Virus record (IMG/VR): IMGVR_UViG_2923350032_000001
Span: 1-64,000 of that record
Length of the DNA: 64,000 nt
DNA from: a virus
Lineage: Duplodnaviria > Heunggongvirae > Uroviricota > Caudoviricetes
Reading direction: 5' to 3' (one strand)
Positions 7,773 through 28,468 of this stretch are shown piece after piece. Made by a program: the position numbers and the translations under genes. A model generated the notes under the pieces. It searched no databases, was not told where the DNA came from, and saw nothing but the letters and a program-made list of their open reading frames with translations. The stretch's first letter is position 1, and each line of letters starts with the position of its first letter.

Positions 7773-8966
7773 GTGACCTGGGACGATCACAAGAAGAATT
7801 TTGCTCGCCTGGCGCGAGATGGTGGTTACACCATCGCACAGTATGCCGCCGAGTTTAATCTTAACCCTAATACCGCACGTCGTTATCTCCGTGCCTTCAA
7901 AGAAGACTCCAGGACTGCGGACAGCCGCAAGCCAAATAAGCCAGTCAGGAAGCCACTAAAAAGCATGATCATTGATCACTCTAATGATCAACATGCAGGT
8001 GATCATATTGCGGCTGAAATAGCGGAAAAACAGAGAGTTAATGCCGTTATCAGTGCCGCAGTCGAGAATGCGAAGCGCCAAAATAAGCGCATAAATGATC
8101 GTTCAGATGATCATGACGTGATCACCCGCGCCCACCGGACCTTACGTGATCGCCTGGAACGCGACACCCTGGATGATGATGGTGAACGCTTTGAATTCGA
8201 AGCTGGCGATTACCTGATAGATAACGTTGAAGCGCGGAAGGCCGCGCGCGCTATGTTGCGTCGGTCCGGGGCCGATGTTCTGGAAACCACTCTTCTTGAA
8301 AAGTCTCTTTCTCATCTCCTTATGCTGGAGAACGCCAGGGATACGTGTATTCGCCTGGTGCAGGAAATGCGCGATCAGCAAAAAGACGATGATGAAGGTA
8401 CTCCGCCTGAATACCGTATCGCGAGCATGCTAAACAGCTGTTCCGCGCAGATAAGCAGCCTGATCAACACCATTTACAGCATCCGGAATAACTATCGAAA
8501 AGAAAGCCGGGAGGCGGAAAAGCACGCTTTGTCTATGGGGCAAGCTGGCATTGTTAAGCTGGCATACGAACGAAAGCGTGAAAATAACTGGTCAGTGCTG
8601 GAAGCAGCTGAATTCATCGAGGCGCATGGCGGGAAAGTGCCGCCCCTGATGCTGGAGCAAATCAAAGCCGATCTGCGTGCTCCTAAGACCAATACCGATG
8701 ATGAGGAAAGGCAAACAGCCGTCGGTGGCCCTTCTCTTGAAGATCTGGACAAAGTTGCGCGAGAACGGGCCGCCAACCGCCGCGCCGATGCCGCATTGTG
8801 GATTGAGCAGCGTAGGGAAGAAATCGCCGATATCGTTGATACAGGCGGTTATGGAGATGTTGATACTGAAGGTGTATCAAACGACCCATGGCTGGAACAA
8901 GACCTGGACGAAGACGAGGAGGAAGACGAAGAAGTTACCCGCAAGCTATACGGGGATGATGATTAA
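7773..8966 (+). CDS. pacA: Terminase small subunit PacA
   Basis: 397-aa ORF containing the pac site, acidic C-terminus, followed by pacB. Confidence 0.85.
7964..8127. other. pac: pac packaging site: 4 + 3 TGATCA/G hexamers (Dam sites) flanking the cleavage region
   Basis: GATC hexamers at about 7966, 7974, 7985, 8001 and about 8097, 8109, 8121 inside pacA. Confidence 0.85.
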
Positions 8967-10450
8967 TGGCCAGAAGTTGCGTAACGGATCCACGTTGGCG
9001 CGAGCTGGTGGCGCTATATCGTTATGACTGGATTGCTGCCGCTGATGTTTTGTTCGGCAAAACACCTACCTGGCAGCAGGATCTGATTATTGAGTCTGTG
9101 CAGGAACAGGGTAGCAAGACATCTGTTTCGTCTGGTCACGGTACCGGGAAATCAGACATGACTTCTATCATGATCATGTTGTTCATAATCATGTATCCCG
9201 GTGCCCGCGCCATTATCGTTGCGAACAAAATTCAGCAGGTAATGACCGGTATATTCAAGTACATCAAGATAAACTGGGCTACTGCCACCAGCCGTTTCCC
9301 ATGGCTTGCTGATTATTTTGTTCTGACAGAAACCGCTTTCTATGAGGTTACAGGTAAAGGTGTATGGACTGTAGTACCGAAGGGCTTTCGTCTGGGAAGT
9401 GAAGAAGCTCTCGCCGGTGAACACGCAGATCATCTTCTGTATATTATCGATGAAGCCTCCGGTGTCAGTGATAGAGCTTTCGGTATCATCACCGGTGCTC
9501 TTACCGGACAGGATAACCGCATCTTATTACTGTCACAGCCTACACGCCCAAGCGGCTATTTCTACGATACACACCATAAACTGGCCAAGCGTCCTGGTAA
9601 CCCTGATGGCGTTTATACGGCGATCACGCTTAACAGTGAGGAATCACCGTTGGTAACGCCAGCATTTATCAAAATGAAGCTGGCGGAGTACGGCGGGCGT
9701 GATAACCCTATGTACATGATTAAGGTACGCGGCCTATTCCCTAAATCACAGGATGGCTTCCTTCTTGGACGTGATGAGGTTGAACGTGCAACGCGGCGGA
9801 AAGTCAAGATTGCCAAAGGATGGGGCTGGCTTGCATGTGTGGACGTTGCTGGTGGTACGGGACGGGATAAGTCCGTTATCAATATCATGATGGTGTCCGG
9901 CCAGCGAAATAAACGCCGTGTAATCAACTATCGAATGCTGGAATACACAGACGTTACAGAAACGCAGCTTGCCGCCAAAATTTTCGCAGAATGTAATCCT
10001 GAGCGATTCCCAAATATCACCATAGCGATAGACGGCGATGGGCTGGGTAAAGCAACGGCGGATCTGATGTACGAGTATTATGGTATTACCGTACAGCGTA
10101 TACGCTGGGGTAAAAAGATGCATAGCCGTGAAGATAAGAGCCTGTACTTTGATAAACGTGCTTATGCCAACGTTCAAGCCGCAGAGGCCGTAAAATCTGG
10201 TCGTATGAGACTGGATAAGGGTAATGAAACTATTGAGGAAGCGTCGAAAATCCCTGTAGGGATTAACTCCGCAGGTCAATGGAAGGTGATGAGTAAGGAG
10301 GATATGAAGAAAAAACTCAACCTGCACTCACCAGACCATTGGGATACATATTGTTTCGCTATGCTGGCGGATTATGTTCCCCAGGATGAAGTGCTTAGCG
10401 TCGAAGACGAAGCGCAGGTTGATGAAGCTCTGGCATGGCTTAATGAATGA
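8966..10450 (+). CDS. pacB: Terminase large subunit PacB
   Basis: 494-aa ORF, start overlaps the pacA stop. Confidence 0.85.
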
Positions 10451-10453
10451 ATA

Positions 10454-10470
10454 TTTGCTCTAATAAATTG
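10454..10470 (+). promoter_or_regulatory. C1 operator (TTTGCTCTAATAAATTG)
   Basis: 16/17 match to the P1 C1 operator consensus, 4 bp after the pacB stop and upstream of the icd-like/ant-like genes. Confidence 0.7.
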
Positions 10471-10597
10471 TGTTTTTTAACTGCCGATGTTACATTGAAC
10501 CTGACCTCTTGCGCCTTGAGGCATTTTCGGTTTATGCTTATCAGGCACCTCATTAAAACGGGTGCCGGGATTGAGACCCCGGATAATGCAAAAGGCG

Positions 10598-10622
10598 ACA
10601 CAGACGCCAAAAGCGTCTTTTT
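10598..10622 (+). terminator. Rho-independent terminator-like hairpin (AGACGC-CAAAA-GCGTCT + T8)
   Basis: Perfect 6-bp stem followed by TTTTTTTT. Confidence 0.45.
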
Positions 10623-10810
10623 TTTGTGTCATGCCATCGCACAGCCATACGTAGCGTTTAGCTCAGAGATCAATGGTAGTGCTGGCTGGGCTGCCGAAAG
10701 GCAGGCCGGTTCCCTTTTGCGCCGGTAGTCTCAACCCAGTCAGTGCTACCGCCATTGAGATTGAGACCTCACGCGGTAGCTCCTTAAATTAGCAAAAGGA
10801 GGCTGCCATT

Positions 10811-11032
10811 GTGGCTACTATCCCTACCCCTGCTCATCCTGAATTTATCTGGCGCTTTTACTCCTGCCAAAAACGTCACTATCACTTCGTTATTGCACCG
10901 ACAGAAGATGAGGCACGTTCTCAGCTTCCTGACGCCCCATGTATTTTCTCTGCCCGTTTTTCCACTGATTCACGCAATTCTCTCAGTTACTGGTGCCTCC
11001 CTGTTAACGCTTCTGCTCAGGAGGGACTATGA
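10811..11032 (+). CDS. Icd-like small protein (cell-division inhibitor / Ash family), extra copy
   Basis: 73-aa ORF, paralog of ORF 24261-24482 (EFIWRFYSC..HYHFVIA.TEDEARSQLPD..CIF.ARFST.SRNSLSYW shared). Confidence 0.6.
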   Translation: MATIPTPAHPEFIWRFYSCQKRHYHFVIAPTEDEARSQLPDAPCIFSARFSTDSRNSLSYWCLPVNASAQEGL

Positions 11033-12141
11033 GAACATCGTTAGTTACCCGTGAAGAGATGATCGAGGCAATTGAACAGCACACTGCCTGTATCAGTACC
11101 AGGGATATACCTGGCGTTATTGCCAACTACTTCATGATCACCAAACAACTTTACCGGAGAAAGGACAAGAACGCGGTTCACCGTATCCTGCTGTCTGATA
11201 TCCGCGAATACCTGCTCGAACAGGGGCATCTGAATTACGCAACCGTCGCAGCCGAAGCACGCAAGGAGGCACACAGAATGAAAGCAACTAACGTTAAATC
11301 AGAAAAAATTTATGCACCTTCAGTTCAGGAATCGGAACTGGTGGTTGTTCAGAATCAGCCGGATGAAATTCCCGTTCTGGAATGGCAGGGAGTACGTGTC
11401 GTGACAACCGAAACTCTTGCTAGAGGGTATGGGGTCGATGAAGCCAATATTCGCAACAATTTGTCTCGCAACCTTGACCGCTTTGAAGAAGGTAAGCATT
11501 ACTTTCTTCTAACAGGTTTAAAATTAAGAGAATTTAAGAACAGAGTAACCGGAAGTTACTCTGTTGGTAAGAACGCCAGAAGCCTTACACTCTGGACAGA
11601 GCGCGGCGCTGCACGCATGTCTAAGATCGTGGACACAAATGAAGCATGGGCATTCTTTGAAAAACTGGAAGACAGCTACTTCCGACAAAAAGAACAGCAA
11701 CCGATCGCAATCCCCCAGACGCTTCCTGAAGCCCTACGCCTGGCTGCCGAACTGGCTGAACAAAAGCAGCTTCTGGAACAGAAAGCCCACCAGCTAAATC
11801 AGCAGCTGGTGGCCGCCGCTCCTAAGGTCGATTTTGCCGACCGGGTATCAGTAGCTAAAGGGATCCTGATTGGGAATTTTGCAAAGGTTGTTGGACTTAA
11901 GCAAAACGCGCTGTTTGCCTGGTTACGGGAGAACGGCATTCTGATAGCGTCCGGCGGGCGTAAAAATGTGCCGTTCCAGCAGTACATAAACGCCGGATAT
12001 TTCACAGTGAAAGAAGTGGTGCTGGATGATGAAGATGGCTACCAGATACGGCTGACGCCCCAATTAACGGGGAAAGGACAACAGTGGTTGACGCGTAAAC
12101 TGCTCGATGCTGGCTTGTTAAAACCGGTGGCGGCTGAATAA
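11029..12141 (+). CDS. Antirepressor-like protein (Ant/KilA-N domain plus Ant C-terminal domain)
   Basis: 370-aa ORF coupled to the icd-like gene; C-terminal 150 aa nearly identical to ORF 25081-25524 and similar to the C-terminus of KilA. Confidence 0.7.
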   Translation: MRTSLVTREEMIEAIEQHTACISTRDIPGVIANYFMITKQLYRRKDKNAVHRILLSDIREYLLEQGHLNYATVAAEARKEAHRMKATNVKSEKIYAPSVQESELVVVQNQPDEIPVLEWQGVRVVTTETLARGYGVDEANIRNNLSRNLDRFEEGKHYFLLTGLKLREFKNRVTGSYSVGKNARSLTLWTERGAARMSKIVDTNEAWAFFEKLEDSYFRQKEQQPIAIPQTLPEALRLAAELAEQKQLLEQKAHQLNQQLVAAAPKVDFADRVSVAKGILIGNFAKVVGLKQNALFAWLRENGILIASGGRKNVPFQQYINAGYFTVKEVVLDDEDGYQIRLTPQLTGKGQQWLTRKLLDAGLLKPVAAE

Positions 12142-12173: not shown

Positions 12174-13025
12174 TTATTGCGCGCTTTCGGGGTTGTCGTT
12201 TACTGGCTGCCCCTTCTTAGTTTTACGACTGCGCGTAACTGATGCGGCTGATTTGACCTTTTTCTCTTCGCGAGTGATGGCAATTTGTTTTTTTACATTT
12301 TCAATATCTGCCAGGCGATATATTTTTGCCTGCGGCCAGCGGTCGCAGATGATCGGTTCTATGGAGTCATAAAGGCTAAATTTTGCTTTTTCGAATTCAC
12401 CGTTGATGATAATTCCATCACGGAGAGTTTCATCGCAGATAAACACGCCACACAGTGGCACATGGTAACTAACTGATTTACCATCATTGTAGTTAGGGCT
12501 ACTGGAAATGTAGTGGACGCGCAGCATTGTTTCGCTAAAGCCGTGTACGCGCATACGGAATTTTTCATCCTCCGGGTACTGCTTCATTAGCTCTTTTGTT
12601 GCTTCCAGGTTCTCTATGTATTTCGCACTGTGCTCATTGATCCCCGCGCTTTTTTGGATGCGAATGTCCTTATCAATCAGATGAATAATGCGGCCAGCGG
12701 TCATGTTGACGCTGTTCACAGCCTCTGTCTGATAAGTTGTAACCTTACGCACACCGCGAAGGATGTTAGGCACTGGATATAAAATAGTCTTTGGGATATT
12801 GAGGTCTGGGTACTGTTCCAGTTCCCGCGCCATTAAAGTCCATTTATCAATTTCAGCCTGAATGCTGTCAGTTTCTTTGAACGGTAGAACGACAACCGGG
12901 CGTACAGGACGACCGTCGCTGGCTGTATCAACGTGTTGGGCGCGTGCAACAGCTTTTTTTAGAAAGAGATCCCTGAAGCTGACGAACTCCTGGTACAGTT
13001 GTTCGCCGTAGACATAATTTATCAT
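12174..13025 (-). CDS. c1: C1 repressor of lysis
   Basis: 283-aa ORF MINYVYGEQLYQEFVSFRDLFLKK... matches remembered P1 C1. Confidence 0.95.
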   Translation of the reverse strand: MINYVYGEQLYQEFVSFRDLFLKKAVARAQHVDTASDGRPVRPVVVLPFKETDSIQAEIDKWTLMARELEQYPDLNIPKTILYPVPNILRGVRKVTTYQTEAVNSVNMTAGRIIHLIDKDIRIQKSAGINEHSAKYIENLEATKELMKQYPEDEKFRMRVHGFSETMLRVHYISSSPNYNDGKSVSYHVPLCGVFICDETLRDGIIINGEFEKAKFSLYDSIEPIICDRWPQAKIYRLADIENVKKQIAITREEKKVKSAASVTRSRKTKKGQPVNDNPESAQ

Positions 13026-21963: not shown

Positions 21964-23196
21964 TTATTTGAATATATCGGTTATAGTTGGGTAATTATAC
22001 ATCTTAAGCTTATCTCTAAATTTCATAGAAAATATAGGGTCTACCTTACATCTCTGTGAGAGCTTTGCAAGCCTTAGCTCCCTCTCTTTCATAATATCTT
22101 TGTATTCTCTATCAATACTCTCCTGAATTTGCTGATTCTCAACAGGAGACGGTTTTGTAATTTTATCCCATTGATAAGTTGGATTCTCAGTGTAATTTAA
22201 ATCATCATTTTGAAGTAATTTCTCAAGATGAGACATAGCATTTTCATATAGCATTCTATCTTGGGGCAACATACTTGCAACACGCACTTCGCTTTCAATT
22301 TCCGATACTATCATTTCAAGTTGACGTTTTTCCATCGCTATAGCTACACGGAATGGAAACAGGGCTTCTTGCTTAATCATTTGACAATTCACATTATTGT
22401 TTATGTCACTAAGTAATTTTACAAATGAGAACTTCGCTAAAGGCTGCTGATTTATGACACTCTGTCTAACTGGCATTGTGTAGCTCGGTGTTTTTTCAAG
22501 TGTTTTCTTCACTTGCTCTATAGCAACATTAGGAGTTTTGAGAACAGTCTTTGCTGGAATACGTAGCACCATAAACCCCTCCTTTATTGAATATTCATCA
22601 CGAATACGATCTCGCTCTATTTGTTCAGGGGATGAATGCCATGCTGCACCATCAATTTCTATAATTTGGCGTCCATTTACGACAAAATCAAAACGATAAC
22701 GCTTATAGGGCACTTGCATTTCAAGCACTAAGTCAGGAGAAACTAACATTCCAGATTTAGGTTTAAGATTAAACTCTGCAACCATTTTACGAAGAAATGC
22801 CTCCTCAGCCGGAGATTCGCAACCTTTGCAAAATATATCAAGCCAGTTTTCTGCGTCAGCGTCAACAGTTTGCCACCATGCTAACAGTCCGCGTCGGTGT
22901 CCATATAATCGTTCATCTGACGGTTTTGTTAATGGCTTTGTTAACGGTTTAATTAAGGGTTCATTTAACGGCTTATTTAACGGATTTAATAACGATTCAT
23001 TTAATGGTTTGATTGACGGTCTATTTGACGACTCAATCGGTGGTTTAGATGATGATTTGTTTTTTTTATCAAAACCTACGATAGTTATATATGCTACATA
23101 TAGCATCATGCCTGCAACAGGCCATACACATGGATAAATCACGTAACACAACAGTAATAGAACAATAGTCCCAAAAAATGTTAACTTCTTCCGCAT
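21964..23196 (-). CDS. Membrane-anchored protein with Pro-rich tetrapeptide repeats and a DUF559/Vsr-like endonuclease-fold domain
   Basis: 410 aa; N-terminal TM helices; PLNKPLNEPLIKPLTKPLTKP repeats; motif IEIDGAAWHSS...RDRIRDEY...GFMVLRI; low-GC gene. Confidence 0.55.
   Translation of the reverse strand: MRKKLTFFGTIVLLLLCYVIYPCVWPVAGMMLYVAYITIVGFDKKNKSSSKPPIESSNRPSIKPLNESLLNPLNKPLNEPLIKPLTKPLTKPSDERLYGHRRGLLAWWQTVDADAENWLDIFCKGCESPAEEAFLRKMVAEFNLKPKSGMLVSPDLVLEMQVPYKRYRFDFVVNGRQIIEIDGAAWHSSPEQIERDRIRDEYSIKEGFMVLRIPAKTVLKTPNVAIEQVKKTLEKTPSYTMPVRQSVINQQPLAKFSFVKLLSDINNNVNCQMIKQEALFPFRVAIAMEKRQLEMIVSEIESEVRVASMLPQDRMLYENAMSHLEKLLQNDDLNYTENPTYQWDKITKPSPVENQQIQESIDREYKDIMKERELRLAKLSQRCKVDPIFSMKFRDKLKMYNYPTITDIFK
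22922..23030. repeat. Imperfect 12-bp tandem repeat array (about 9 units) inside ORF 21964-23196
   Basis: Units GGNTTNNTTAAY repeated head to tail; encodes the Pro-rich tetrapeptide repeats. Confidence 0.7.
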
Positions 23197-23269
23197 ACCA
23201 AACTCTTTGCATCAATAAAGGGGGCTGGCTTATATAATCAAATCACATGCCCGAAATAAAAGATGACCA

Positions 23270-23706
23270 ACACCAACGGAAATAACACTCTAAAGCTCCA
23301 CCGCCAGCACCACCAGCACCACCAGCACCACCAGCACCACCAGCACCACCAGCAACTGCACCCAAGGTAGAAGTTCCTTTAATATTATATCCAGTAACAC
23401 TACCAGCTACTGCACCGAGAACAGCACCGAAAGTCTGAGCTGCTTATTTATTAGCTGTATTATCAACTTTTACTTTGGCTGGGAGAACAGAGATTATATT
23501 TACTACTCTTGTTTTGAATTAAGTTGGGCTGTGTCGTACACATCTGCCGCATATTCAGCACCATTAGACTGACACCCTGAGAGAAAAATTGCAGAAACAA
23601 CCATGACGCATAAAGAAGAAATTTTAGCCATTAGAATCATCCCAGAAAAAAATATAATCCAAGAAAATCTATCACATAAGCCAAATACAAACAAGATTAC
23701 AAACAA
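23270..23706 (-). pseudogene. Decayed SlyB/Pcp-like glycine-zipper outer-membrane lipoprotein
   Basis: ORF 23503-23706 has a lipobox (AIFLSGC) and DVYDTAQLNSKQ resembling SlyB; downstream in another frame a Gly-zipper GAVLGAVAGSVTG...(GAG)5 follows, separated by stop codons. Confidence 0.4.
23305..23349. repeat. Perfect 9-bp tandem repeat CAGCACCAC x5
   Basis: Direct reading; encodes (Gly-Ala-Gly)5 on the minus strand. Confidence 0.9.
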
Positions 23707-23931: not shown

Positions 23932-23948
23932 TTCGCTCTAATAAATTT
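23932..23948 (+). promoter_or_regulatory. C1 operator-like site upstream of the immI-like module
   Basis: TTCGCTCTAATAAATTT, 15/17 to consensus, about 310 bp upstream of icd. Confidence 0.55.
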
Positions 23949-24099
23949 GTATTTTTAAGTCGCGAATGCTATCTTTTCGCATCATATTGACCTTTTAATC
24001 GTTCAGGCTTGTAGTTCCGCCGTCGTAGCAAATTCTGCGACCGGGTTTAGCAGCCTGAATACTTACGCGGACAACCGCAGATTTCCGATATTGCGGTAT

Positions 24100-24255
24100 T
24101 TTTGTGTCCGTAAACCACGTTACGCCCGAATTATGGTGGGGCGTGATGGGGAGGCTTCGGCCTGCTGGTTTCGTAAGTGCCAGTCTGCTAACCCCGTCAC
24201 GTCCTGCCACCTGTTTAGCAGCGGGTCGCAGGTTGTTTATCAACTTACGAGGCCG
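24100..24255 (+). ncRNA. c4: Candidate c4-type antisense regulatory RNA region
   Basis: Position between operator and icd; GC-rich hairpins; TTTTTGTGTC element shared with the paralogous region at about 10617; not verified against the P1 c4 sequence. Confidence 0.3.
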
Positions 24256-24260
24256 TAACT

Positions 24261-24482
24261 ATGGTTAATGCCAATCCTTGCGCACGCCAAGAATTCATCT
24301 GGCGTTTCTATTCCTGTAAAAAACACCACTATCACTTCGTTATCGCAGCAACAGAAGACGAAGCACGCTCTCAATTGCCTGATGGCCCCTGCATTTTTAC
24401 TGCCCGTTTTTCAACTAACTCGCGCAATTCACTTAGTTACTGGAGCCTCCCCTTCTCTGCCGACGTTCAGGGGGGTTTATGA
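24261..24482 (+). CDS. icd: Icd-like protein
   Basis: 73-aa ORF, 4-bp overlap with the ant start. Confidence 0.65.
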   Translation: MVNANPCARQEFIWRFYSCKKHHYHFVIAATEDEARSQLPDGPCIFTARFSTNSRNSLSYWSLPFSADVQGGL

Positions 24483-25524
24483 AAACACCTCTCGTCACCC
24501 GTAATGAAATAGCCGAAGCGATCGCCTTGCATACTGCCTGTATGCCGACACGGGAGACCCCCGGCGCAATTGCCAACTATTTCATGATAACCAGACGTTT
24601 TTATACCCGAACAGATAAGGCTGTGATCAACAGGCTACTGATAGCCGAGATCAGGGATTATTTGATTGAACAAGGACGTCTACGTTACGCAACAGTGGCA
24701 GCAGAAATGAGAAAGGAGGCGCGCAGAATGACCGGTAATAATTTGAATGTTGAAAAACCAGCACCTGTTGCTTCAGCTACGCCATCACCAGCTGTGAATG
24801 TTATCTCCAACACTGGAGACACAATCGACAGCCAGACACTGTTAAAGATGGTCAATGAAGCGCGTAAGTTATGTGTGGAACCAGAGGTTCGGAACAACAA
24901 ATTCATCGAAAAAATACTCGACGAATTAGAAGGTGAGGACGGTTACACAAAAAGTGCAACCGTGCCGCCAGGTGGCGGTACGCCTATGGTTGTCATAACC
25001 ATGACCTACAAACAAGCCCTGCGAGTCGCGCGCGCGAGTCAAAAGCGGTCCGCCGTTCGCTGATCGACAAACTGGAAGAATTGCAGCAGGCATACTCCCC
25101 TGCCCCATCGATCCCCCAAACATTACCAGAAGCTCTACGCATGGCTGCCGAGTTGGCAGAGCAGAAAATGCAGTTGGAACAGCAGCTGGTGGCCGCAGCC
25201 CCTAAAGTCGATTTTGCCGACCGGGTATCAGTGGCCAATGGAATCCTGATCGGGAACTTTGCAAAGGTCGTTGGACTTAAGCAAAACGCCCTTTTCTCAT
25301 GGTTGCGCCAGAACGGCATTCTCATGGCTTTTGGAGCGCGCAAAAACGTACCGCGCCAACAGTACATCAATGCGGGGTATTTCACGGTGAAAGAAGTGGT
25401 GCTGGATGATGAAAATGGCTACCAGATACGGCTGACGCCCCAATTAACGGGTAAAGGCCAGCAGTGGTTAACTCGCAAGCTACTTGATGCTGGTTTGTTA
25501 AAACCAGTGGCGTCCTTGTCTTAA
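24479..25524 (+). pseudogene. ant: Antirepressor Ant, apparently frameshifted into two ORFs
   Basis: ORFs 24479-25063 and 25081-25524 together parallel the 370-aa protein at 11029-12141; frame change near a GCGCGCGCG run around 25030-25065. Confidence 0.55.
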
Positions 25525-26077
25525 CGTATTCAGACCAGGATTTGCCATAAATTACAGGCATGTGTACGATATGCCCAACCCTGTTTTTCAGGGGAGGCGC
25601 AACGTTATGCGGGGGTTATGAACTCCTGGATGCGTAGCCTCCAGACAGAAAAAACCCTCGCCACAACGTTGCATGGAGGCAACCAGCGAGGGCATTCCTT
25701 ATGTCTGATCAACAAGAGGATAGCCGCAAGCAGTTGCTGTTGCAAGTGTGCGGAGCTTCGTAATGACTCTTCAAAAAGCTTGCAAGTGGATTGTGACCAA
25801 CATCATTGTTCCTGTCATCATCGGAGCTTCAAGTTCTGTGTTGGCATCAGTGATTGCCTCACTTCTCCACATTGCATAACAACATTGAAGGGCGTTAGTT
25901 CGCAGTGTAACAGCAGCGCGTTGCGCCCGAACAGGCCACAGGGTAAAACCTGTGGCCTTTTTCGTTTTAGCCAGCCACAAATCCACATTGAAAAACGCCT
26001 TATACAAAAAAACCTGCCAGCAAACTGGCAGGTTTCTGAGCAGTTCGACCAACCCGATCTGGATCGAGTCAGAAAAA

Positions 26078-26094
26078 TTTGCTCTAATAAATTT
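26078..26094 (+). promoter_or_regulatory. C1 operator upstream of kilA-repL
   Basis: TTTGCTCTAATAAATTT, 16/17. Confidence 0.75.
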
Positions 26095-26163
26095 TGTTTT
26101 CTGAGTGCAAAGAATCACCATTTCGAGCTGGTGATTGAAGGTTGATGCAAATTTGGAGAAAAA

Positions 26164-26964
26164 ATGCAACAAACATTCAATGCGGATATGAATATATCAA
26201 ACCTTCATCAAAATGTCGATCCTTCAACCACTCTGCCTGTTATTTGTGGTGTTGAAATTACGACCGACCGCGCTGGCCGTTACAACCTTAATGCTCTACA
26301 CAGAGCGAGCGGACTCGGTGCCCATAAAGCGCCAGCTCAATGGCTAAGAACGCTGTCAGCCAAACAGCTCATCGAAGAGCTTGAAAAAGAAACTATGCAG
26401 AATTGCATAATTTCGTTCGAAGGCCGTGGCGGCGGCACTTTTGCCCATGAATTGCTCGCAGTGGAGTACGCTGGTTGGATTTCTCCCGCGTTTCGGCTGA
26501 AGGTAAACCAGACATTTATCGACTATCGAGCTGGAAGATTACAACCTGCTATTCCGAAGAGCCTCCCAGAAGCTCTCCGTTTGGCTGCCGACCTGGCAGA
26601 GCAAAAGCAACGGCTGGAGCAAAAAATGCTTATGGATGCACCTAAAGTCGAATTCGCCGAACGCGTTGCTACCGCCAGCGGGGTTCTAATCGGCAACTAT
26701 GCCAAAGTGCTCGGCCTGGGCCAAAACTATCTCTTCACCTGGTTGCGTGATAACGGAATTCTGATCGCAACCGGTGAACGCAGGAACGTCCCCAAACAAG
26801 AATACATATCCCGTGGGTATTTCACCCTTAAAGAAACCGTGATCGATACAAGCAATGGAAGCAGGATTTCTTTCACGACTCGTATAACCGGCAAAGGTCA
26901 GCAGTGGCTGATGAAGCGATTGCTTGATGCTGGTGTGCTGGTACCTGTCGCGGCAACGCGCTAA
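26164..26964 (+). CDS. kilA: KilA (KilA-N domain protein)
   Basis: 266-aa ORF with KilA-N/APSES-like N-terminus and Ant-like C-terminus, followed by repL. Confidence 0.8.
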   Translation: MQQTFNADMNISNLHQNVDPSTTLPVICGVEITTDRAGRYNLNALHRASGLGAHKAPAQWLRTLSAKQLIEELEKETMQNCIISFEGRGGGTFAHELLAVEYAGWISPAFRLKVNQTFIDYRAGRLQPAIPKSLPEALRLAADLAEQKQRLEQKMLMDAPKVEFAERVATASGVLIGNYAKVLGLGQNYLFTWLRDNGILIATGERRNVPKQEYISRGYFTLKETVIDTSNGSRISFTTRITGKGQQWLMKRLLDAGVLVPVAATR

Positions 26965-28135: not shown

Positions 28136-28199
28136 TACAATCGTTGCGGGTGCTTGAGGCTATCTGCTTCAGGCATTACCCGAAAAGCAGATAGAAGAA

Positions 28200-28300
28200 A
28201 GCCCCAGATAACATTACGCGTCCTGCAAGACGCTTAACATTAATCTGAGGCCATATCTATGCTTAGCATACGTAGATTAGCCTCTTACCGACCAAAAGGT
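28200..28300 (-). ncRNA. sok: Expected Sok-type antisense RNA region
   Basis: Inferred from standard hok/mok/sok architecture only. Confidence 0.3.
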
Positions 28301-28468
28301 CAAGGAGAAGCAGGCTATGAAGCAGCAAAAAGCGATGTTAATCGCTCTGATCGTCATCTGTTTAACCGTCATTGTGACGGCACTGGTAACGAGGAAAGAC
28401 CTCTGCGAGGTACGAATCCGAACCGGCCAGACGGAGGTCACTGTCTTCACAGCCTACGAATCTGAAAG
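28259..28468 (+). CDS. mok: Mok-like overlapping reading frame of the hok locus
   Basis: 68-aa ORF overlapping hok in another frame. Confidence 0.5.

Follow-up and report, generated by a model that had tools for sequence, protein, structure and literature searches.

The immI locus of the window

The window is the whole stretch of DNA analysed here, 64,000 nucleotides of the IMG/VR virus record IMGVR_UViG_2923350032_000001. On its plus strand, downstream of a C4 antisense RNA gene and icd and upstream of kilA and repL, lie two open reading frames that together make up a broken antirepressor gene, ant, see Table 1. The two are in different reading frames and are present exactly as they had been described from the letters of the window without any database search (the sequence-only reading). 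That reading also placed them at the canonical position of ant, and this is borne out by the C4 RNA and icd upstream and by kilA-repL downstream.

In the annotated records of P1 and P7, the C1 operator Oc4 and the promoters are followed by the a1/b1 target sites and the C4 antisense RNA. Next come the a2/b2 target sites, icd and ant1; ant2 begins inside ant1, at codon 84 and in the same frame, and 3' of ant the terminator, PkilA/Op53, kilA and repL are found. The window follows the same arrangement. Its alignment with P1, P7 and MH422554 in the upstream part is collinear starting at the operator, and the ant1/ant2-icd region is 94-97% identical at the DNA level to P1, P7 and P1-like phages (megablast, phage records). 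The operator-like site has two mismatches to the 17-nt P1 C1 operator sequence. The position of ant, the overlap of the icd stop with the ant1 start (ATGA) and the Ant2 start at codon 84 are all as in the immI region of P1 and P7; icd itself is annotated as Icd-like in two related plasmids, pL9-1 and pEC85-4-128k (below pEC85). No damage is seen in the C1 operator and promoter region upstream, nor in the terminator, PkilA and Op53 (97% identical to P1), kilA and repL downstream. From the shared gene order, the Rfam elements and the collinear upstream alignment it is clear that the ant of the window is the canonical immI ant1/ant2 of a P1-like phage-plasmid.

Table 1. Coordinates of the immI locus, the lesion in ant and the second immI-like module in the window.
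Feature	Position	Strand	Description
C1-operator-like site TTCGCTCTAATAAATTT	23932-23948	+	P1 Oc4/Op51 position; aligns with annotated P1/P7 Oc4
a1/b1 target sites of C4 RNA	24009-24061	+	Rfam RF03163, 51.4 bits (gathering score 46.7)
C4 antisense RNA gene, intact	24129-24214	+	Rfam RF01695, 70.8 bits (gathering score 45)
icd, intact	24261-24482	+	73 aa; NCBIfam NF033153 phage_ICD_like, E=4e-14; aligns with P1/P7 icd
5' half of ant1	24479-25063	+	194 aa, ATG start; 184 native and 10 out-of-frame residues, then TGA
Truncated ant2 frame	24728-25063	+	111 aa; ATG at ant1 codon 84, GGAGG in front
Lesion site GTCGCGCGCGCGAG	25025-25038	+	C missing between 25029 and 25030 (alignment with P1, P7, MH422554)
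3' half of ant	25081-25524	+	147 aa, TTG start; -1 frame relative to 5' half; KilAC/ANT domain
pacB	8966-10450		Assigned by size and position
Second immI-like module, intact	10454-12141	+	Between pacB and c1; separate from the ant lesion
C1-operator-like site, second module	10454-10470	+	Resembles the C1 operator
isrK-like element, second module	10545-10623	+	Rfam RF01394; a1/b1 equivalence inferred from position
C4-family RNA, second module	10669-10756	+	Rfam RF01695, 75 bits
icd-like gene, second module	10811-11032	+	Upstream of Ant-like gene
370-aa Ant-like gene, second module	11029-12141	+	ORF6N and KilAC; last gene of the module, intact
c1	12174-13025	-	Assigned by size and position

The C4 RNA and its targets are mutually complementary. 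The a' loop, CTGCTAA, is the full complement of both a1 and a2 (TTAGCAG). The b' loop TCGTAAGT is the full complement of b2 ACTTACGA; its pairing with b1 ACTTACGC covers 7 of 8 positions, and P1 shows the same. The a' loop is P7-like, the b' loop is unlike that of either P1 or P7, and all four target sites (24009-24061 and ~24215-24260) carry the matching changes. In contrast to P1 and P7, MH422554 matches the window in both the b' loop and the targets, and what the two have in common looks, from the pairing sequences, like a third immI specificity.

The surroundings of the locus also show several differences from P1 and P7. The ant stop is separated from the conserved terminator/PkilA region by ~494 bp of extra DNA (25512-26005) that P1 and P7 do not have. 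At least the first ~190 bp of this stretch (to 25700) are common to several Escherichia albertii P1-like plasmids, as judged from full-length matches to a 24300-25700 query, and it contains only doubtful ORFs, 25618-26145 (+) and 25771-26172 (-; hypothetical in pL9-1). Upstream of c4, the P1 sim operon is absent (window 21964-23700). In its place are a gene for a 410-aa protein with an endonuclease domain (DUF559/MTES_1575; 21964-23196, minus strand), which in pL9-1 is further interrupted by an IS91-family element, and a degraded remnant at ~23300-23630, at the position of the lipoprotein/membrane genes upf50.0/upf50.5 of P7. Downstream of repL, a sok antitoxin RNA (RF01794, 115 bits) is found at 28148-28322, and a hokD toxin gene is annotated near the sok position in pL9-1 and pEC85.

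A single missing base breaks ant1 and ant2

The alignment with P1, P7 and MH422554 locates the lesion in a CC pair that has lost one C (25029^25030), in the codons of Ala184 and Ala185 (GCC GCG). At the break P1 reads GAGTCGCCGCGCGCGAGTC and the window GAGTCG-CGCGCGCGAGTC. The wild-type codons GTC GCC GCG CGC GAG (V A A R E) become GTC GCG CGC GCG AGT in the window, so that the frame is lost after Ala184 and ten wrong residues (RASQKRSAVR) follow before the TGA at 25061-25063. The frame of the 3' half is open from 24937.

When one C is put back, the result is a 348-aa Ant1 that matches the Ant1 of P1, P7 and MH422554 end to end and is near-identical to them. It is collinear with the P1 protein (347 aa) and the P7 protein along the full length, and in this alignment the missing C is the sole lesion. 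The comparison with P1 ant1/ant2 thus identifies the two ORFs as the halves of one antirepressor gene. The KilAC/ANT domain (PF03374) is recognized by Pfam with E=2e-31 in the downstream ORF and with E=1e-30 in the repaired protein. Pfam and NCBIfam gave no match for the N-terminal or central region of Ant, and the upstream ORF has no Pfam match.

In the actual sequence of the window the KilAC domain is no longer connected to the N-terminal part of Ant. The start of Ant2 is located 249 nt past the ant1 start, an offset identical in the annotation of P1 and P7; the break comes after this start and so truncates Ant2 too. Missing from both Ant1 and Ant2 are the last part of the central domain, the linker and the complete C-terminal KilAC domain, as can be read directly from the sequence. 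Unlike in P1 and P7, therefore, the frame is broken after codon 184 and neither Ant product contains KilAC; through the premature stop, ant is a pseudogene of its family and not a functional member.

The sequence-only reading had ascribed the split to a frameshift at a slippage-prone run of GC dinucleotides. The first part stands, as the break maps inside the tract GTCGCGCGCGCGAG, but slippage of the dinucleotide does not: the change is -1 nt within the CC pair and not ±2 nt. In the wild type, GC-C is followed by (CG)4, and the run of five units, (CG)5, is produced by the deletion itself. A tract involved in phase variation would differ between close relatives in the number of repeat units, and lengths would change in multiples of the unit. 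Among the IMG/VR relatives, however, only base substitutions are seen (GCCGCGCGCGAG, GCCGCGCGCGAA, GCCGCACGCGAA, GCTGCTCGCGAA and GCCGCCCGCGAG), and the 66 of 80 loci in which the site can be read all have 12 nt there. With a 1-nt change and a constant site length in the relatives, GC-dinucleotide slippage was rejected and the tract is not a length-variable repeat.

The deletion is found in one plasmid lineage

To see how the allele is distributed, an 81-nt query with the break in its middle was compared with E. coli RefSeq by BLAST. The deletion allele is present in 2 of the 458 matching records, both 100% identical to the query, and absent from the other 456; 12 records among the matches listed differ from the query by the extra base only. 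The two carriers are the complete RefSeq plasmids pL9-1 (NZ_CP142045.1, chicken, China) and pEC85-4-128k (NZ_CP158185.1, human urine, China). Their loci, VPJ62_RS23525 and ABRY29_RS25440, share with the window the allele, the 1046-nt span and a 100% identical icd-ant sequence, and PGAP labels both as a frameshifted "phage antirepressor KilAC domain-containing protein". An exact-sequence protein look-up found the truncated 194-aa product on 7 contigs, including the drafts LVLU01000038.1 and JBAOQF010000016.1 and the Logan assembly of run SRR32878100. In every carrier locus retrieved, the deletion is present and icd-ant is 100% identical. Exact 35-mer scans of genome, viral and metagenome contig collections gave no match to the deletion allele, which surfaced instead through the E. 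coli RefSeq search and the protein look-up.

Among IMG/VR relatives, ant is a single frame in all 80 loci examined, a list that was ranked by match quality and is biased to intact copies, so that it does not give the frequency of ant pseudogenes.

These distributions bear on whether the gene is in fact intact and the frameshift an artefact of sequencing or assembly, in which a C was miscalled in a G+C-rich run. Some platforms do miscall bases in such a context, where a single nucleotide is gained or lost from a CC pair amid CG-rich sequence. However, the allele occurs in at least five independent assemblies from different isolates and projects (two complete plasmids, two drafts and one Logan assembly), and the carriers form one lineage with 100% identical icd-ant, where a systematic error would scatter across lineages. 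It is also absent from the E. coli records noted above and from the IMG/VR loci with the identical wild-type context GCCGCGCGCGAG, 25 in all. A random error would not be expected to recur and a systematic one would be expected to spread between lineages; the observed pattern fits neither. The sequencing indel that had been considered in the sequence-only reading is thus very unlikely, given the recurrence of the identical allele in independent assemblies of one lineage. Genuine inactivation, which it had also considered, is supported by this recurrence and by the annotation as a frameshifted pseudogene.

By this comparison of sequences the deletion is a real, heritable marker of one clonal plasmid lineage. 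Elsewhere the window is arranged unlike pL9-1 and pEC85, with IS and Tn insertions and rearrangements, and it is therefore a further member of the lineage. We conclude with high confidence that the canonical immI ant1/ant2 of this P1-like phage-plasmid has been inactivated through the loss of one C at 25029^25030, a genuine mutation that is inherited.

Improbable alternatives: recoding or two separate genes

A broken frame can still be expressed if the ribosome or the polymerase shifts on it. Both frames are open between 24937 and 25063, and the Ant frame could be regained only through a -1 shift at some point in 25030-25060. A frame analysis of the window sequence found no slippery heptamer of the type X_XXY_YYZ anywhere in the upstream ORF. 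The sole candidate motif is a single-codon A_AAG (CAA AAG at 25040-25045, A_AAG at 25042-25045), located upstream of the premature stop. The A_AAG tetramer is shift-prone and familiar from studies of frameshifting in E. coli. A small and weak hairpin (25046-25066), a candidate stimulatory structure, directly follows it, with no spacer where one of 5-9 nt would be expected.

A programmed shift had been another option in the sequence-only reading. Here the evidence is negative, as the relatives have one continuous ORF, the canonical heptamer is missing and the two-frame layout is not conserved (single-frame in 80/80 IMG/VR loci, allele lacking in 456/458 E. coli records). The split is found in one lineage, and A_AAG comes into phase via the deletion only, so that on sequence grounds a conserved, evolved recoding signal at the ant break is excluded.

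An unevolved bypass is a separate question. A -1 ribosomal frameshift or transcriptional slippage could yield a reduced amount of a functional, near-full-length Ant1/Ant2. Downstream of the deletion, within the overlap, the zero frame CAA AAG puts A_AAG in phase with the hairpin directly behind it, and a shift there would alter only five residues (RASQK for ARESK, positions 185-189). However, the motif is in phase solely through the deletion and so cannot be an evolved signal, X_XXY_YYZ is absent, the hairpin is weak and spacer-less, the expected efficiency of a shift is at most a few percent, and the split is limited to one clonal lineage whose relatives encode a single ORF. We regard functional bypass as highly improbable, although low-level -1 slippage at A_AAG upstream of the premature stop could still give a trace of near-native Ant.

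It is also conceivable that ant has become two functional genes, an Ant1'/Ant2' fragment and a separate KilAC protein starting at TTG 25081 or ATG 25141, which either reassemble or act independently. The break falls between the central and the KilAC domains, a boundary that is also seen in the modular KilA and 370-aa Ant-like paralogs; a 127-aa KilAC ORF is predicted by gene callers in related contigs; and TTG 25081 sits 18 nt past the stop, where reinitiation could be imagined. However, neither TTG 25081 nor ATG 25141 is preceded by a Shine-Dalgarno sequence at a usable distance, the allele exists in one lineage only and the sequence is unchanged since the split. The last two observations leave no sign of selection for a two-gene arrangement, which we consider hardly credible. 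The reading that remains strongly preferred is inactivation of ant by the deletion.

A second immI-like module between pacB and c1

The window also carries an intact second module of the same type between pacB and c1, see Table 1. In this it resembles RCS47 and pTZ20_1P, in both of which an ant insert has been described at the pacB-c1 position (PMC6906374). The C4-family RNA of the module is strongly diverged from the canonical C4.

The sequence-only reading had taken the two ant ORFs together to parallel the intact 370-aa Ant-like protein. This holds for the ends of the proteins: the 370-aa protein is a paralog that shares with canonical Ant the N-terminal region (~85 aa) and the KilAC C-terminus. 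It does not hold for the middle, where the second-module product has an ORF6N domain (PF10543) and P1 Ant a different central region.

Probable consequences of the ant lesion

In the P1 immI system, ant is silenced by C4 in lysogens. According to the notes of the P1 and P7 records, Ant1 and Ant2 overlap in the same frame and act against the C1 repressor in an Ant1/Ant2/C1 complex (see also PMC8546580). In a genome-wide CRISPRi screen of P1, ant1 and ant2 were non-essential (PMC10695390). None of the sources consulted here names the domain of Ant that contacts C1.

Both products of the window have lost the linker and KilAC, and the simplest expectation from this is that the immI antirepressor is lost. 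The truncated 194-aa and 111-aa proteins are most likely unable to antagonise C1, which would leave the prophage-plasmid without the immI route of derepression. The deletion is probably recent. A plasmid-borne prophage would be unaffected by it or benefit slightly, given that C4 silences ant in lysogens and that growth does not depend on ant, and the undecayed state of the rest of the operon and of kilA/repL points to the recent loss of a dispensable gene. The second c4-icd-ant-like module near c1 may keep some antirepressor capacity.

Loss of ant is also known as an answer to damage in C4, the classical cases being the c4/virs suppressors. Such compensation was rejected for the window, since neither C4 nor any of its four target sites is damaged and the RNA is complementary to all of them.

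It can further be speculated that the loss is an adaptive rewiring in a lineage with two C1-controlled c4-icd-ant modules of different C4 specificities. If this were true, the pacB-c1 module with its ORF6N-KilAC Ant would be left as the only antirepressor, different superinfecting relatives would be able to induce the prophage and the resistance-bearing plasmid would be stabilised. In a minor variant, the in-phase A_AAG made by the deletion could pass a trickle of full-length Ant. We consider such rewiring unlikely, and the loss of a dispensable gene remains the reading we favour.

The ant frameshift is already known, in the sense that public records label the locus a frameshifted pseudogene, and it is an ordinary finding. 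It tells annotators to treat the two ORFs as one pseudogene and the lesion as a true marker of the lineage; beyond annotation it has little import.

Other P1-like plasmids have also been affected in ant. The pRHB16-C13_3 lineage has an independent nonsense allele in the KilAC domain at codon ~283, FGAR*NVPRQ (CP057733.1, 12448-14260). The ant protein entry is missing in four sibling plasmids of pRHB16-C13_3, from UK pig farms. CP042641.1, with several ant indels, was left out of the count, as it has 49 features for a 95-kb record and may be a low-quality assembly. The nonsense allele of pRHB16-C13_3 is a small data point, but it fits the idea that ant is expendable in P1-like phage-plasmids that are kept as plasmids.
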